From: Barthelona sp. PCE
Taxonomy: Eukaryota
NCBI GenBank assembly: GCA_040285745.1
Contig: JAUFOR010000006.1
Span: 558,001 to 622,000, forward strand
DNA: 64,000 nt
Direction: 5' to 3'
Shown: in pieces, positions 11,616 through 17,936 of the stretch
Layout: each line of letters starts with the position of its first letter
How positions within the stretch are numbered: the stretch's first letter is position 1
Notes under the pieces: model-generated
The model's database searches: none
What the model was told of the DNA's origin: nothing
Seen by the model: the letters and a program-made list of their open reading frames with translations, nothing else
Program-made: the position numbers and the translations under genes

Positions 11616-13327
11616 ATGCAGCCAGGTGACGCAAGTGGTGTAATGATGACTCACGATGAGTATGGACGTCCATACATCATTCTAAGAGAGCAACTCAACA
11701 AACAGCGCAAAACAGGCGTTGAAGCTTCAAGAGTACGTTTATGCTCACTGAATTTGCACTTAGCGTGTGCTTTTGGTGATTTTTCTCAGATTTTTCTTAC
11801 TTTTAGGAGAATATCATGGCTGCTTCAGTCATTGGTAACCTTATGAAGAGCTCATTAGGTCCTCGTGGACTTGACAAGATGTTACTGGACTCTCAAGGTC
11901 AAAACGTAACAATCACCAATGATGGTGCCACTATCCTTGAGAACCTCGATCTCTCAAACCAGATCAGTAAGCTTCTGGTTGAGCTGAGCACATGTCAGGA
12001 CGATGAGATTGGTGATGGAACAACTGGTGTTGTTGTTCTTGCCTGCGCTTTGCTTGAAGAAGCTGCTAAGCTCTTTGAGAAGGGTATCCACCCCGTTAGA
12101 ATCGCTGACGGTTACGATGAAGCATGTAAGATTGCTGTTCAACGTCTTGAAGAAATCTCTGATATTGTTCCTTTTGGTCCTGACAACATTGAACCTCTTC
12201 TTCGTACTGCTAAAACTACTCTTTCCTCAAAGATTGTCAACAAGCATCTCGATCAAATGGCTCAGATTGCTGTTGACGCTGTACTTTCCGTGGCTGATTT
12301 GGAAGAAAAGGATGTTAACTTTGACCTTATCAAGGTCGAAGGTAAGGCCGGTGGTAAGATGAGTGATACCCGTGTTGTTGAAGGTATTGTTCTTGATAAC
12401 AAGACTTTCTCTCACCCTCAAATGACTAAAGAAATTGAGGAAGCCAAAATCTGTATCCTTTCATGTCCTTTTGAACCTCCTAAGCCCAAGATTAAGCATT
12501 TTATTGAAGTTGAGAACGCTGAACAGTACAAGGACTTGATTGCTTATGAGTCAGAGTATTTCCAGAAGATGGTTCAACAAGTCAAGGATTCTGGTGCTGA
12601 TGTCGTTGTTTGTCAATGGGGTTTCGATGATGAGGCTAACCATCTGCTTATGCAAAACAACCTTCCTTCTATTCGTTGGGTTGGTGGTGCCGAGCTTGAA
12701 TTAGTCGCTATCGCAACTGATGCTCGTATTATTCCTCGTTTCGAAGAAATTTCTCCTGATAAGCTCGGTACATGTAAGGTTATTCGTGAAGACAGCGTTG
12801 GTACTCAAAACGATTCTATGATTGTCTTAGAAGGTTGCCCTAATCACAAGGCTATTACTGTCATGGTTCGCGGTGGTAACGCTATGATTATCGATGAAAT
12901 TAAGCGTTCTTTGCATGATGCTATGTGTGTTACCCGTAACCTCATTAAGGATAACCGTATTGTTTTCGGTGGTGGTTCTTGTGAGATTGCCATGGGTATC
13001 GCCGTTTCTGAAGCTGCTGATTCTCATACTGGTATCGAGCAATACGCTCTTCGTGCCTTTGCTGACGCTCTTGAACAAGTTCCCGCTTCTCTTGCTACTA
13101 ACTCTGGTCTTCCTGCTATTGAAACTTTAACTGAAGTCAGAGCAACACAGTTGAAGGAGAACAACCCTGTCCTTGGTATTGATTGCCTTCAGAAGGGTAC
13201 TTTAGATATGAGAGAACAGAATGTGTTCGAGGCATTAATTGGTAAGAAATCTCAAATTTTACTTGCTACTCAATTGGTAAGGATGATTCTGAAGATCGGT
13301 ACCGTTGTCAGCCCTAGTGAGATCTAA
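11616..13327 (+). CDS. CCT5: T-complex protein 1 subunit epsilon; exons 11616-11732 and 11807-13327
   Basis: Exon 1 encodes the conserved [13 protein letters not shown]. Exon 2 has [28 protein letters not shown] and [13 protein letters not shown]. The splice joins ...EASR|ENIMAA. Confidence 0.97.
11733..11806 (+). other. Spliceosomal intron, 74 nt (GTACGT...TTCTTACTTTTAG)
   Basis: GT/AG ends; phase-0 removal fuses two ORFs in different frames into a full-length CCT5 N-terminus. Confidence 0.92.
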
Positions 13328-13504
13328 TTTTGTGCCAGTCGCAATAATAAAGCAAGACGATTTATTTTTCTTTGTGTTTTACCGTTAAAAAACTAAATAA
13401 ACCTGTTGTATGGACTTGTATATGTAGTTGAAAGCGTATGAACTCTTTAGAACAATAGTACTCCTATGTTGAACTCATTCAATTTTTTCATACCATTTCG
13501 TTCA

Positions 13505-15520
13505 ATGTCAGACCCAAGAGTCGATATTGAAAATCAACAAGTGAAGCCAACCAACCTGGACAATCAAATTTGGTCAGGATACCTGGAGAAGCGTGGAGGC
13601 ATGTTTGCTCAGTTCAAAAACAGATTTTTTGTACTTTGTGAGGATTATATTGTCTACTTCAAGAACGAGACATCGTCACTCAATGGTGCTATTCCTCTTC
13701 AGGATCTCCAAGTACATTACAATCCCCTTGTTAAGGAGCTCACACTTGTAAGCCCTTTCCCACGTCATGTTGGTAAGGGTGATGAACAAAGTATCTTTTA
13801 TCTGCGCGGAGAGAATGCCAAGACCATCTACGGTCATCTATGTGATTTGCTTTTTGATGTTAAGAAGGAAGAGGATGAACTGCCCATCATGCAAACTCCT
13901 ACCAAGCGTGTGCGTGCTGAGACAACTGTCGTTCCCGCCACCCCATCCGTCAATTCCTTAGGTGAACCTTTAGATGAGATGGCAACCCCAATTTATTTAA
14001 CTTATATTTGTTTACCATCTCGCTCAATTTACGCTTTTTATGTCGTGCGTATTGGTGAGTATGTTGCGATTGTTGACACTGGTTGCCATTGCGTACCTCA
14101 TCAGCATATTCAAGAACTTTTAATGAGTAGTGAATATCTACTTAAAGGTGCAAAAGAAGTTGAGCTTTATATTACTCATGATCATGAGGATCATAACGGC
14201 TACACTCGTCAACTGCGCCCAATCTTCAATGAAATGCAAGAGAACGGTGAAATCAAATTTGAATTCATTGAACGTGAGCATGCTGGTGAAGACTGGAACA
14301 CACTTCGTGACAATGATGAGTGGGAGAGCGTTCGTATCGCCCCGGCGTACTTTGAGTCATGTGCTATTGCTAAGAGCCGTCGCACTGGATATCGGTGCTT
14401 TGTTCGTGACTACAATGATGGTCACCCTTTCAAGACCACCATTTATATTCCTCCACCAAAAGCAACTGAGTCAGACAACACCAATCTTGAATCTTTTGCT
14501 GTCGAGTTCGAAGTTAAAATGAAGGATGAGACTAAGGAGCCTTATCGTTGTTTCTTAGCTGGTGATATGGATTTTGTCAAGGTTATGCGCCCTTTTAGTC
14601 ACGCTCACTTCAGTGCGGTTGATTATCTAGTGCAATCTCATCACGGCTCAAAGAATTATACGTCAGTTGATAAATACGCTGCTCTGCCGTGTGATTTTGC
14701 CTTTGCTCCATGCGGACAATTCGGTAAAACTGATTACTACGTTGACGAAGCTCCCCTGAGTGATATGCGCCTTGCCATGGCTGGTTCAAATCGAAAGAAC
14801 GACGGTGAGAACTATGGTGCTTTCACTGACTCTATGCATTCTGTCTGGTTCAATGTTGGGTATGATGGCAAGAACAACTGGACGAACGAGCTGACAGCCG
14901 AACAGGTCAGAGAACGCGGTATCAGTTGTATTCTGCGCCAAGTTCGCATGCGTTCGCGTATGCTTTGGAAATGTAAGGGATGTAAGAAGAGTGATCCATG
15001 TCTTTGTCCCGAAAAGTGCAAGTGGAACCTCTCATTTGATGACTGTGATGCACACACACTTCTCAACAACATTGACAAGGCAGTTATGGAAGACCCTACA
15101 CCTTTACTTGAGGCATTGGGTATGGAAGCACTCCCTTCTCGTGTCAAGACCGGGTATGAGCTGTATCTAAACATTTTGAAGGGCTTGTATGCTGATCATT
15201 TCGGAGATGCTGGCAGTAATAACCCTTCAGTTACTATGTTAAGAGAGTTATTAGAAGAAGGTGTCACTTATCATGAATATGAATTTGCTGAGAATACTCC
15301 CTCACTTCATGTATCCGCTTATGCTTGCCCCAGTCAGCTTGATGCATTTGTATGTGCCTTAACCCATCGTGGCTTTGTTAATGGGTTTATGGTCAGACGT
15401 ACTAACGATACTCAACAGTTTGAGTCTCCACGTGGCAAGATGCCCATGTCTCCTGCAAAGAAAATTAAGGTTGTTAAAGGTAAGTATGGACGTAAGATTC
15501 CAGAAATCCTTTCTCGTTAA
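13505..15520 (+). CDS. PH domain + ComEC/Rec2-like metallo-beta-lactamase domain + Cys-rich segment
   Basis: PH: SGYLEKRGG....KNRFFVL....IVYFK......GAIPL. MBL: IVDTG, THDHEDH, NLES, LAGDM, SHHGSKN. Then CKGC....CLC...C. Confidence 0.8.
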   Translation: MSDPRVDIENQQVKPTNLDNQIWSGYLEKRGGMFAQFKNRFFVLCEDYIVYFKNETSSLNGAIPLQDLQVHYNPLVKELTLVSPFPRHVGKGDEQSIFYLRGENAKTIYGHLCDLLFDVKKEEDELPIMQTPTKRVRAETTVVPATPSVNSLGEPLDEMATPIYLTYICLPSRSIYAFYVVRIGEYVAIVDTGCHCVPHQHIQELLMSSEYLLKGAKEVELYITHDHEDHNGYTRQLRPIFNEMQENGEIKFEFIEREHAGEDWNTLRDNDEWESVRIAPAYFESCAIAKSRRTGYRCFVRDYNDGHPFKTTIYIPPPKATESDNTNLESFAVEFEVKMKDETKEPYRCFLAGDMDFVKVMRPFSHAHFSAVDYLVQSHHGSKNYTSVDKYAALPCDFAFAPCGQFGKTDYYVDEAPLSDMRLAMAGSNRKNDGENYGAFTDSMHSVWFNVGYDGKNNWTNELTAEQVRERGISCILRQVRMRSRMLWKCKGCKKSDPCLCPEKCKWNLSFDDCDAHTLLNNIDKAVMEDPTPLLEALGMEALPSRVKTGYELYLNILKGLYADHFGDAGSNNPSVTMLRELLEEGVTYHEYEFAENTPSLHVSAYACPSQLDAFVCALTHRGFVNGFMVRRTNDTQQFESPRGKMPMSPAKKIKVVKGKYGRKIPEILSR

Positions 15521-15671: not shown

Positions 15672-17936
15672 ATGAATATCGAGTTCACCCCATTGAGTGT
15701 GTTCCCGGGCATTGAATTTGATTTTGATCTCCTTTACGAAGAATTAGGAGATGTTTTTCCAGAATACTATGAAGAGATTGAGCATATCACTGAATTCAAG
15801 GATTTTATCACAACTGATGGGCCCCTTGTACTGTCTGAAGCCGATCAATTAGCTGTTGCAGCACTCCAGCAATTTTTGGAGCTTAATTGGGTCTCACCGT
15901 ATTATGAACCCGAATATATAATGCTCAACGCTGACCCTGACATCCTTGGCGCCGAATTTCACTCCCCTTGGCCTAGTACACGTTCGTTGGGTTCCCTCAT
16001 TTTGGCACTTGGTTTAACCAATGAATCTCGAGATGATATCACACAAATGTCATTAATTACCCGTTTCAGGGCACTTATGTGTCTCCAGCGCATTCTCCCA
16101 TCCGAGTCGAAACAAGTTTTCGATGAGTTAGAACGTGTTGTTGCACTCATAGAATTGAATTCACTTTCACAGATTCCCAGAGCTGCACTAATGTTTGAAC
16201 AGTTCTGGTTCCATGTATGGTACCATAACATCGACTATGCAGAGGAGAAATTTTTTGCATTATGTGATTTGCTGAATGTGAAAATAACCAAGCAGGTTAT
16301 CACTGGACAGTTTTCTTCAAAAGGTGCGCAGGAACAAAATAGAGTGCACATTAAATTGAGTGCACCAAAATTCTTGTATGACATTGACATTGAGGAAGAA
16401 TCATTATTAATGCCATATGAAAAGAGCGAGTTTGATCCACGGTTGCTTGAAGAATTCGCAAAGATGGATGAGTTCGAGCCTCTTGGTGTGTTCCTATCTG
16501 CCCTTATGTGCGCTTATTCCACTATGTTGGAAAAAAGCAGGACAAAGTCTCAGATTAGGGATAATGAGCGACTAAGTGCGTTGTTACGGATCATTGCCTG
16601 CCCGAAATCCCATTGGTCAAACTTAAAGGCGCAGCTCGCAGCAGCAGCAATTGATTCAGATAGGCCGTTGATCGCAGAAAGATATTGTTGTCAGTTTGAA
16701 GTTGCTGAAAAATGGTATCAGAAAACACAGAATATATCACACAAAGATAAGTGGAATGGTTTATTGATAACAGGTACTTCTTCATTTTCTGAATTTGTTA
16801 TGGCCCTTGCTAATGAAAACTTTAGACTTGGTGCTTATGGTTATTCACTCAAATTTTACAAAGATTTGGATAATATACAAAAGATGGCTGAATGTCAAAT
16901 TCTAATCCAGGATGAAGATTCTGCAAGAGATACACTTCTTGAATGTATTGATAAATTTAAAGGTCGAAAACAAGCTGAAGCATATCATTCAATGGGGAAA
17001 ATTTCGGACGACGAGGATTTTTACCGTTCTGCCATAGAGGTTTGGCCCAGGTATGCCCCATCACACTTCAAACTGGGTGAAGGTGCCATGCGCCGTAAGG
17101 ATAATGAGGTTGGATTGCAGCACATGCAAGCTGGTGCTGAAATTGCACCTTTCCATGCTGGTGTCTTTTTCAGTATTGGTTATCTGCACATGCAGGCACA
17201 ACGCTTTACAGAGGGTACGTCTGCATTCCGTCGCTCAGTGGAGCTCGATCCCACCGTAGCGGATGCCTGGGCAAATCTAGCAATGTGTTTCATGTACGAC
17301 AATAAGTTGGCAGAGGCACATGTAGCTATCAGGCAGGCCACACATCACTGTGTCCGTAACCAACAGATCTGGAAGCAATTTGCAGTTATTTCTTGTGAAT
17401 TGAGGACAGTTACAGATTGTGTTCGTGCGTTAATTCAGTTGATCTCAGAGCACTCATTTATATTCATTGCTGTTCTTGAAAAGCTCATACATATATTTGA
17501 GTGTAACCTGCCAACAACAACTGTCGACGGTTATGAAGCACTCAAGAACAATCTTCCCTTGGTATTTAAGAGTGTTGAAAAGCACACTACCCCTGACCAC
17601 CGGTTCCATGCATGTGTGTCCCGTTATGAGGCTGCCATTGGTGCAGAACACCGCGCTTTGTTCAGTCAGTTGAAGAGATTGGGCAGCTTGATGGGCTCGG
17701 ATTGGTCTAATGTAGTTGAGTTGTGTGACAAGGTCATTGAGACCGTGGAGCGCATCGAGGAGCTCGTTACATCAGAGGACATTGAGATCTCCAATGATTT
17801 TGCCAGTATGATAAGGGTATCTGTTCAGCCAATTGCACAGAAAGCAACGACGAATATTATGAATGATGACATCACGAAGAAGCTCAATGATGCTGTTGCA
17901 AGTATCACTCATCACATTCAACAGAATTACCAATAA
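15672..17936 (+). CDS. TTC27: Tetratricopeptide repeat protein, TTC27/Emw1-like
   Basis: LQQFLELNWVSP N-terminal motif; TPRs such as FFSIG...AFRRSVELDP..ADAWANLA and NQQIWKQF. Confidence 0.75.
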   Translation: MNIEFTPLSVFPGIEFDFDLLYEELGDVFPEYYEEIEHITEFKDFITTDGPLVLSEADQLAVAALQQFLELNWVSPYYEPEYIMLNADPDILGAEFHSPWPSTRSLGSLILALGLTNESRDDITQMSLITRFRALMCLQRILPSESKQVFDELERVVALIELNSLSQIPRAALMFEQFWFHVWYHNIDYAEEKFFALCDLLNVKITKQVITGQFSSKGAQEQNRVHIKLSAPKFLYDIDIEEESLLMPYEKSEFDPRLLEEFAKMDEFEPLGVFLSALMCAYSTMLEKSRTKSQIRDNERLSALLRIIACPKSHWSNLKAQLAAAAIDSDRPLIAERYCCQFEVAEKWYQKTQNISHKDKWNGLLITGTSSFSEFVMALANENFRLGAYGYSLKFYKDLDNIQKMAECQILIQDEDSARDTLLECIDKFKGRKQAEAYHSMGKISDDEDFYRSAIEVWPRYAPSHFKLGEGAMRRKDNEVGLQHMQAGAEIAPFHAGVFFSIGYLHMQAQRFTEGTSAFRRSVELDPTVADAWANLAMCFMYDNKLAEAHVAIRQATHHCVRNQQIWKQFAVISCELRTVTDCVRALIQLISEHSFIFIAVLEKLIHIFECNLPTTTVDGYEALKNNLPLVFKSVEKHTTPDHRFHACVSRYEAAIGAEHRALFSQLKRLGSLMGSDWSNVVELCDKVIETVERIEELVTSEDIEISNDFASMIRVSVQPIAQKATTNIMNDDITKKLNDAVASITHHIQQNYQ

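Follow-up and report, generated by a model that had tools for sequence, protein, structure and literature searches.

The DNA analyzed here, referred to as the window, is a stretch of 64,000 nucleotides from Barthelona sp. PCE, a free-living anaerobic protist of the metamonads (contig JAUFOR010000006.1, positions 558,001 to 622,000 of the forward strand; all coordinates below count from its first letter). At 13505 to 15520 on the forward strand it carries a gene whose product, P0001, joins an N-terminal PH (pleckstrin homology) domain to a predicted metallo-beta-lactamase (MBL) domain of the kind found in the bacterial protein ComEC and in the phosphorylcholine esterase Pce. This architecture had been proposed in an original prediction made from the sequence letters without database searches, which the present analysis follows up. 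The reading frame is open without interruption from 13466 to 15520, and its ATG at 13505 yields a protein of 671 amino acids from 2,013 coding bases, in agreement to the base with the predicted interval; the window contains no N. The NCBI protein records include an identical 671-residue sequence, and the deposited gene model has the same coordinates. The gene is real and intact and lies in a gene-dense, intron-poor metamonad genome, with 34 open reading frames of at least 200 amino acids in the 64 kb of the window. In order, P0001 comprises the PH domain, the MBL-fold domain, a Cys cluster and a helical C-terminal region with a basic tail:

13505 to 15520, forward strand: complete intronless coding sequence of P0001, 671 amino acids and stop codon (single frame; uniform composition)
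13559 to 13864, forward strand: PH domain, about residues 19-120, with K29...K38-N-R40 in the beta1/beta2 region (Pfam, phmmer, model)
13865 to 13984, forward strand: acidic Pro/Thr/Ser-rich linker, residues 121-160, with T131-P-T-K-R (isoelectric point (pI) 4.4; predicted local distance difference test (pLDDT) score below 50 where the model begins)
13985 to 14914, forward strand: predicted MBL-fold domain of ComEC/Pce type, residues 161-470 (family profile, Foldseek, VIA-align)
14972 to 15019, forward strand: Cys cluster C490-x2-C493-x5-C499-x-C501-x3-C505 in a basic segment of pI 9.9 (sequence)
15020 to 15409, forward strand: mainly helical C-terminal region, conserved with the Barthelona protein P0007 to about residue 604
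15410 to 15517, forward strand: Lys/Arg-rich C-terminal tail, residues 636-671, pI 10.8 (composition)

Domains of P0001

The PH domain expected at the N-terminus was recovered by the Pfam model PF00169, which matches residues 24-75 with 30.4 bits (E 5.9e-7), above its cut-off of 25.1 bits. In a phmmer search of the PDB, 15 of the 18 chains among the matches listed were PH domains, and the best sequence matches, to residues 21-71, were those of pleckstrin, GRP1/cytohesin-3, TAPP1 and DAPP1, at E-values of 0.014-0.2 that are individually not significant. A single-sequence AlphaFold model of the region is poor (mean pLDDT 53.9), with seven strands followed by a helix at residues 103-117 and a low-confidence helix at the place expected for strand 1; all matches listed by Foldseek for this low-confidence model were PH-type folds, the best at E 4.8e-4. 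In the phmmer alignment, K29, K38, R40 and Y51 stand opposite Lys, Lys, Arg and Tyr of GRP1, so that K29...K38-N39-R40 lines up with Lys...Lys-Arg-Arg and conforms to K-Xn-(K/R)-X-R, a pattern of strands 1 and 2 that is typical of phosphoinositide-binding PH domains. The domain may therefore bind phosphoinositides. As read from the sequence, its C-terminal helix lacks Trp, unlike that of the pleckstrin, GRP1, TAPP1 and DAPP1 domains, and a word-based search returned no close relative of the region up to E 10 among longer proteins.

Taken alone, P0001 is matched only weakly by MBL models: Pfam Lactamase_B reaches 13.5 bits, below its cut-off of 22.7 bits, and an RNase J1 model appeared at E 0.11, which makes such single-sequence comparisons uninformative. 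A much clearer picture emerged with a profile of nine family sequences (A1; the family is described below). Searched against the PDB, A1 retrieved six top chains that are all ComEC/Rec2 (E 2.8e-7 to 1.6e-3), followed by RNase J at 2.1e-3, with Pce not among the matches up to E 10. Against 5.8 billion sequences, the same profile returned only the family members P0009 and P0010 and one bacterial protein, a full-length Firmicutes ComEC/Rec2, at E 7.8e-6. When the 11 rows of a second alignment (A2) were compared with family models, NCBIfam ComEC_Rec2 matched six (best E 1.1e-10), PRK11539 five, Avs1a three and 6A-MBL two (best E 4.7e-8); among the PADLOC models, LmuA matched five rows, RTasMBL four and Avs1a three.

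Structural comparison led to the same group of proteins. The AlphaFold model of residues 140-671 has a mean pLDDT of 55.9; its C-terminal third, including the C-terminal helices, lies below 50, and the core blocks, at about model residues 20-260, mostly reach 60-94, with dips below 55 near 121-150 and 181-190. With this model, Foldseek ranked Pce first (1.7e-6) and the ComEC domain of Moorella glycerini (9ic4) next (2.6e-6), and VIA-align gave Z-scores of 16.2 for 9ic4 (root-mean-square deviation 3.6 over 217 residues), 16.1 for the Pce structure 2bib and 16.0 for the Pce structure 1wra. The next fold followed at Z 14.0 in the re-ranking and at 13.4 in a Foldseek-independent search, a gap of 2.2-2.8 Z. 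A wide VIA-align search found 70 chains at Z of at least 8, those among the matches listed being proteins of the MBL fold, an alpha-beta/beta-alpha sandwich; NAPE-PLD and yeast PDE1 were also matched, at Z 11.1 and 11.9. By profile and model, the MBL domain of P0001 thus belongs to the ComEC/Pce subgroup, and beta-CASP proteins, RNase Z, RNase J and glyoxalase II are clearly more distant. The original prediction had singled out a ComEC-type domain distinct from beta-CASP, RNase Z and glyoxalase II enzymes and had proposed structure prediction with Foldseek as a check; profile, Foldseek and VIA-align all bear it out.

The Cys cluster, too, is present as predicted. A BLASTP alignment of residues 421-604 with the Barthelona protein P0007 (29% identity, E 7e-23) shows that C490, C493, C499 and C505 are kept, making the cluster a possible four-Cys zinc site. 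Residues 480-671 gave no Atlas lead and no Pfam family, and they show no similarity to the C-terminus of the Kipferlia protein P0004. A signal peptide or membrane segment was not found in P0001, the highest 19-residue hydropathy being 1.21, and the protein would be expected to be soluble and either cytosolic or nuclear. For the same reason a DNase of the phagosome lumen was rejected. PH domains act on cytosolic membrane leaflets, and the phagosome-associated DNA degradation considered in the original prediction, as a lumenal role, does not fit this topology.

Two S/T-P-x-K/R sites occur in P0001, T131-P-T-K-R in the linker (13895-13909) and S649-P-A-K in the tail (15449-15460). Near its N-terminus, the Barthelona protein P0002 has four STPTK repeats with which the former aligns. 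By the usual consensus, both sites, which stand beside basic stretches resembling nuclear localization signals, are possible proline-directed kinase sites.

The active site

The motif order DTG, THDHEDH, NxxS, AGD and HHGS was found in full at the predicted positions, and alignment with ComEC locates the equivalent of each motif:

14069 to 14083, forward strand: motif I, I-V-D191-T-G, residues 189-193, aligned with LIDCG of the bacterial ComEC P0013
14174 to 14194, forward strand: motif II, T-H225-D-H227-E-D229-H230, residues 224-230, canonical HxHxDH (alignment)
14483 to 14494, forward strand: motif III position, N327-L-E-S330, with Asn as in ComEC and not His as in Pce (alignment)
14558 to 14566, forward strand: motif IV, A352-G353-D354, with the predicted metal-bridging Asp; G353 is invariant in A1
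14639 to 14650, forward strand: motif V, H379-H380-G381-S382, aligned with PHHGS of ComEC
14708 to 14716, forward strand: P402-C403-G404 at the site of the ComEC 'GHP' His, with no His in P0001 (alignment)

According to the sections of PMC8579336 cited here, MBL proteins are defined by five motifs (D; HxHxDH; H or N; D; H), and the ComEC domain, a Mn-dependent phosphodiesterase and nuclease, keeps the ligands of Pce except that Asp replaces one His of motif II and Asn the His of motif III. The active site of P0001 therefore appears mixed, with a motif II of the Pce or canonical MBL kind and a ComEC-like motif III. For M. glycerini ComEC, the corresponding sections of PMC12455585 give H598, D600, D602, H603 and D700 as metal ligands and H725 and S728 as putative substrate contacts, and propose that the Ser of HHGS holds the 5' phosphate of DNA. 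The ComEC equivalents of the P0001 motif residues are needed for Mn-dependent nuclease activity (PMC12455585 and PMC8579336, same sections). As motifs I to V are complete, P0001 is probably enzymatically active.

Within the family, only G353, H380, G381 and S382 are invariant columns of A1, and motif II reads HxHxDH in nine of the ten copies that cover the site. The sixth position is more variable. The original prediction had remarked that the last His, that of 'GHP', is not obvious, and indeed P0001 reads P-C-G-Q-F there. P-S-G-x-His is found in six of the ten family copies covering the site; among the copies without this His, P0001, P0002 and P0009 read P-C-G, with Cys for Ser, and P0005a, one of the copies, lacks both His and Cys. 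The exchange of Ser for Cys, two residues upstream of the lost His, is possibly compensating, and the Cys may act as a ligand. The cited sections of PMC12455585 and PMC8579336 do not name the 'GHP' His as a metal ligand of ComEC.

A metamonad family and its genomic setting

An exhaustive phmmer (HMMER) search with residues 140-671 of P0001 against 1.84 billion representatives, at E of at most 1e-3, found only ten relatives: four from Barthelona sp. PCE, two from Kipferlia bialata, two from Aduncisulcus paluster and two metagenome proteins. No bacterial protein was found at that threshold. A word-based protein search with full-length P0001 gave P0002 as its only match, tblastn detected no paralogue within the window, and none of 592 pattern matches in metagenome contigs, obtained with patterns from a smaller alignment (A3), was confirmed as a relative. 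On this sampling, the family is small, divergent and seen so far almost only in metamonads.

None of the ten relatives has a PH domain (Pfam, E up to 0.1), and several are joined to other modules. P0005, a metagenome protein of 1127 amino acids, consists of a formin FH2 domain (Pfam 1.6e-57) followed by two tandem ComEC-type MBL cores, a combination for which we know of no precedent. P0006, a Kipferlia bialata protein of 1015 amino acids, begins with a coiled-coil-like stretch and ends in Sina/TRAF zinc fingers (4.4e-9 and 5.1e-5), and in further members the N-terminus is long and either coiled-coil-like or of low complexity. A tree built from 274 columns of 11 core sequences, with bacterial ComEC for the outgroup, unites P0001 with P0002 and P0003 (support 100/99) and, inside this clade, places P0001 as sister to P0003 (86/74); the deeper branches are not resolved. 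The absence of PH from the relatives, together with this tree, indicates that the PH fusion is specific to the P0001 lineage, in a family prone to domain shuffling. P0003, a Barthelona sp. PCE protein of 247 amino acids, reads TYTDDSY for THDHEDH, GGG for xGD and NHGS for HHGS, and is probably a pseudoenzyme or a decaying copy. It ends where P0007 begins, at adjoining positions of P0001, as if the two were halves of a split gene; the distance of 200 between their locus tags, which lie on one contig, counts against this.

Neither a PH+MBL protein nor the P0001 family turned up in the literature searched, and the words 'lactamase' and 'ComEC' are both absent from the main text of the genome paper on barthelonids and skoliomonads (PMC11316075). 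The view that the architecture is undescribed holds to this extent, and as far as the ten relatives detectable by sequence are concerned. What is new is the combination of PH with a ComEC/Pce-type MBL and the family itself, each domain type being already known. The claim for the combination is limited in that it rests on one gene in one genome.

The gene is flanked, on the same strand, by a gene for a TCP-1/CCT chaperonin subunit at 11816-13327 (Pfam 4e-153) and one for a TPR-repeat protein of 754 amino acids at 15672-17936, from which it is separated by AT-rich spacers of about 150-180 bp. We see no functional link between P0001 and these neighbors.

Proposed function and comparison with known systems

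Based on these results, the interpretation we prefer, with a probability of roughly 0.55, is that P0001 is a PH-targeted, soluble binuclear-metal phosphodiesterase, most likely a nuclease, in a metamonad family of ancient bacterial ComEC-like origin. The phosphodiesterase would be formed by the MBL fold of the ComEC/Pce subgroup, with a binuclear metal site, and its substrate would most likely be nucleic acid, by analogy with the C-terminal nuclease of ComEC and with ComEC-like anti-phage pro-nucleases. Nucleic acid is favored because of the sequence affinity to ComEC and to ComEC-like DNA-cleaving defense nucleases, and because the Ser of HHGS is invariant; ComEC-like MBLs of defense systems cleave DNA once activated, according to the sections of PMC12799240 cited here. 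The PH domain may direct the enzyme to phosphoinositide-bearing membranes or to a partner protein, or gate it there. A substrate-binding surface, lacking in the acidic core, could be provided by the basic Cys4-type cluster together with the basic tail. On this interpretation, the family core would have arisen, most plausibly, by an ancient transfer of a bacterial ComEC-like MBL and would have been joined repeatedly to eukaryotic modules (PH, FH2, Sina/TRAF zinc fingers).

The original prediction had described P0001 as a bacteria-derived enzyme wired to a eukaryotic PH domain. Of this, the bacterial derivation is an inference: the link to bacteria is one of profiles only, through the Firmicutes ComEC, and no bacterial protein was reached directly at E of at most 1e-3. 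The wiring is borne out by the single open reading frame and the basic K...K-x-R residues of the PH domain, but PH appears to have joined an existing, divergent eukaryotic family and not a fresh bacterial import.

A number of observations weigh against our interpretation. Motif II of P0001 is the HxHxDH of Pce, which is not a nuclease, where ComEC has HxDxDH; Pce and ComEC match equally well by fold; and the sixth conserved His is absent, the site reading P402-C403-G404-Q-F. With a pI of 5.2 the catalytic core is acidic, which surfaces that bind DNA typically are not, and the PH domain together with the FH2 fusion in the family fits membrane or cytoskeletal signaling better than DNA metabolism. 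The nearest relative, P0003, has lost motifs II-V, so that catalysis in the clade of P0001, P0002 and P0003 may be under relaxed constraint. P0001 itself matches no ComEC or defense model at E of at most 0.1, and because it matches weakly when taken alone, the subgroup assignment depends on the family profile and on the model, whose low mean pLDDT is given above. As for the PH domain, PF00169 aligns over its first half only (profile positions 4-60 of 105), and M33 and N60 replace two Arg residues of GRP1 in the phmmer alignment.

A first alternative keeps the chemistry and changes the substrate. P0001 could act on a lipid head group or a small phosphodiester, such as phosphocholine- or phosphoinositol-type esters, glycerophosphodiesters or cyclic nucleotides, in the manner of Pce or NAPE-PLD, with PH bringing the enzyme to a membrane substrate. 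We regard this as a serious alternative, if on balance an unlikely one. It draws on the near-equal fold scores of Pce and ComEC (16.1 and 16.0 vs 16.2) and the first rank of Pce in Foldseek, on the shared HxHxDH, on the fold matches to NAPE-PLD and yeast PDE1 and on the acidic core; a soluble protein with a PH domain of basic signature would suit it as well, and the FH2 and TRAF/Sina fusions point to cytoplasmic signaling. However, the A1 profile reaches ComEC and leaves Pce unlisted, motif III has the Asn of ComEC, the HHGS Ser is invariant, and the NCBIfam and PADLOC models matched by at least three of the 11 rows are all of ComEC or defense-system MBLs; choline-binding repeats or other lipid-enzyme features were not detected with Pfam. 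It is also conceivable, though quite improbable in our estimate, that the MBL domain is a non-catalytic scaffold or pseudoenzyme that binds a phosphorylated ligand or a partner protein. The loss of the sixth-motif His in P0001, P0002 and P0009, the degeneration of motifs II, IV and V in the closest relative and the divergence of P0001, too great for any MBL model to match above its cut-off, would agree with this. Yet the five metal-binding motifs are intact despite about 20-50% identity to the relatives, which argues for selection on the active site; the missing 'GHP' His is not a ligand in ComEC as described in the cited sections of PMC12455585 and PMC8579336, and P-C-G in the three His-less copies looks compensated rather than decayed. 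A long shot would see in the family a eukaryotic descendant of the ComEC-like nucleases that serve bacteria in DNA uptake and anti-phage defense, turned into a cytosolic DNase under the control of a signal, which free-living bacterivorous protists would use as an effector of innate immunity or cell suicide. The trigger would be phosphoinositide via PH in P0001 and TRAF/Sina zinc fingers or formin in its relatives, and the long insertions in the catalytic core could be autoinhibitory, as in bacterial pro-nucleases.

That the fusion is an artefact, with PH and MBL belonging to separate genes or molecules through mis-assembly or an over-long gene model, is hardly credible. The linker is of low complexity and PH is found in none of the ten relatives, but there is one frame of 2,013 coding bases without any N, and the NCBI record places the gene on a contig of 688,707 bp. 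Nor does anything in composition or junction suggest foreign or mis-joined DNA: the PH, MBL and C-terminal parts have a GC content at third codon positions (GC3) of 0.41, 0.38 and 0.37, compared to 0.36 and 0.41 in the two neighboring genes, and only the 35-residue linker is higher (0.49); overall GC is likewise uniform over the parts and matches the neighbors. There are no notable repeats around the junction and no plausible internal start, core strand 1 beginning at residue 161 directly after the linker, and the intergenic spacers are short and AT-rich, unlike the linker. A further alternative concerns the origin only. Instead of a transfer into an ancestor of Fornicata and barthelonids, the family could be an old, vertically inherited eukaryotic MBL lineage, perhaps shared with ComEC-like proteins of Entamoeba. 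The lack of any bacterial protein at E of at most 1e-3 in the exhaustive search, the deep divergence of the family with its unsettled internal branches and the MBL-only, ComEC-like proteins of Entamoeba (PMC4161402, in the part that describes them) lend this some weight. Nevertheless, the named members come from three metamonad genera only, no sequence from Entamoeba or a further eukaryote is among the ten relatives, and every relative reached outside the family is bacterial; we therefore consider vertical descent doubtful.

In bacterial transformation the ComEC-type MBL is the nuclease that degrades a DNA strand, and more recent work has identified it as the effector nuclease of several anti-phage systems. 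What the present finding indicates is a small eukaryotic family, so far unannotated, which has this domain as its basis and is confined, on present sampling, to the Fornicata/barthelonid part of Metamonada, and to whose core at least three eukaryotic targeting or signaling modules have been joined: PH, FH2 and Sina/TRAF zinc fingers. Should the family be active, it would show clearly how a nuclease or phosphodiesterase domain of bacterial type can come under eukaryotic membrane and signaling control, and would offer a handle on phosphoinositide-dependent processes in little-studied organisms.

Among eukaryotes, Entamoeba histolytica has two 'amebic ComEC' proteins, EHI_169340 and EHI_156240, presented in the part of PMC4161402 that describes them as MBL-only, annotated as ComEC, lacking the competence domain and of unknown function. 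They are not among the ten relatives, so they are not close to P0001, and they are set apart by that description as well, which reports no PH domain. The MBL effectors of anti-phage systems (Avs1a, the MBL form of Lamassu LmuA, the RT-MBL of DRT, Hachiman HamM and 6A-MBL) resemble P0001 in being soluble, stand-alone ComEC-type MBLs, and they carry insertions relative to ComEC (PMC12799240, cited sections), as does the P0001 family. Unlike them, P0001 stands in a eukaryotic context with eukaryotic fusion modules, is matched by none of their models at E of at most 0.1 and has CCT and TPR neighbors instead of an adjacent partner protease; the operon logic of the bacterial systems does not carry over to a eukaryote. 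Pce (CbpE), which acts on teichoic acid in Streptococcus pneumoniae, ties with ComEC by fold and shares the canonical HxHxDH with P0001. Nevertheless, P0001 is not a Pce: the latter is a secreted bacterial surface enzyme with a motif III His and choline-binding repeats, whereas P0001 has N327 and no such repeats.

The closest comparison is with the C-terminal domain of ComEC/Rec2 itself, which gives the best match to P0001 by fold (M. glycerini structure, Z 16.2) and the best match to the family by profile (E 2.8e-7). The two share the order of D, motif II, N-x-x-S, G-D and H-H-G-S. They differ in motif II, HxHxDH instead of HxDxDH, in the absence of the 'GHP' His from P0001 and in the stretch between motifs II and III, which has 96 residues in P0001 compared to about 59 in ComEC P0013 and is thus roughly 40 longer. 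ComEC has an OB fold and a transmembrane competence channel, both of which P0001 lacks; neither the competence domain (PF03772) nor TIGR00361 was matched by P0001 in Pfam or NCBIfam, and the best family member scores 40.3 bits against TIGR00361, over the MBL part only, where the equivalog cut-off is 190 bits. Conversely, P0001, predicted to be a soluble eukaryotic protein, adds PH, the Cys cluster and the helical C-terminal region to its catalytic domain. P0001 is therefore not a ComEC, with which it shares the type of catalytic domain alone.

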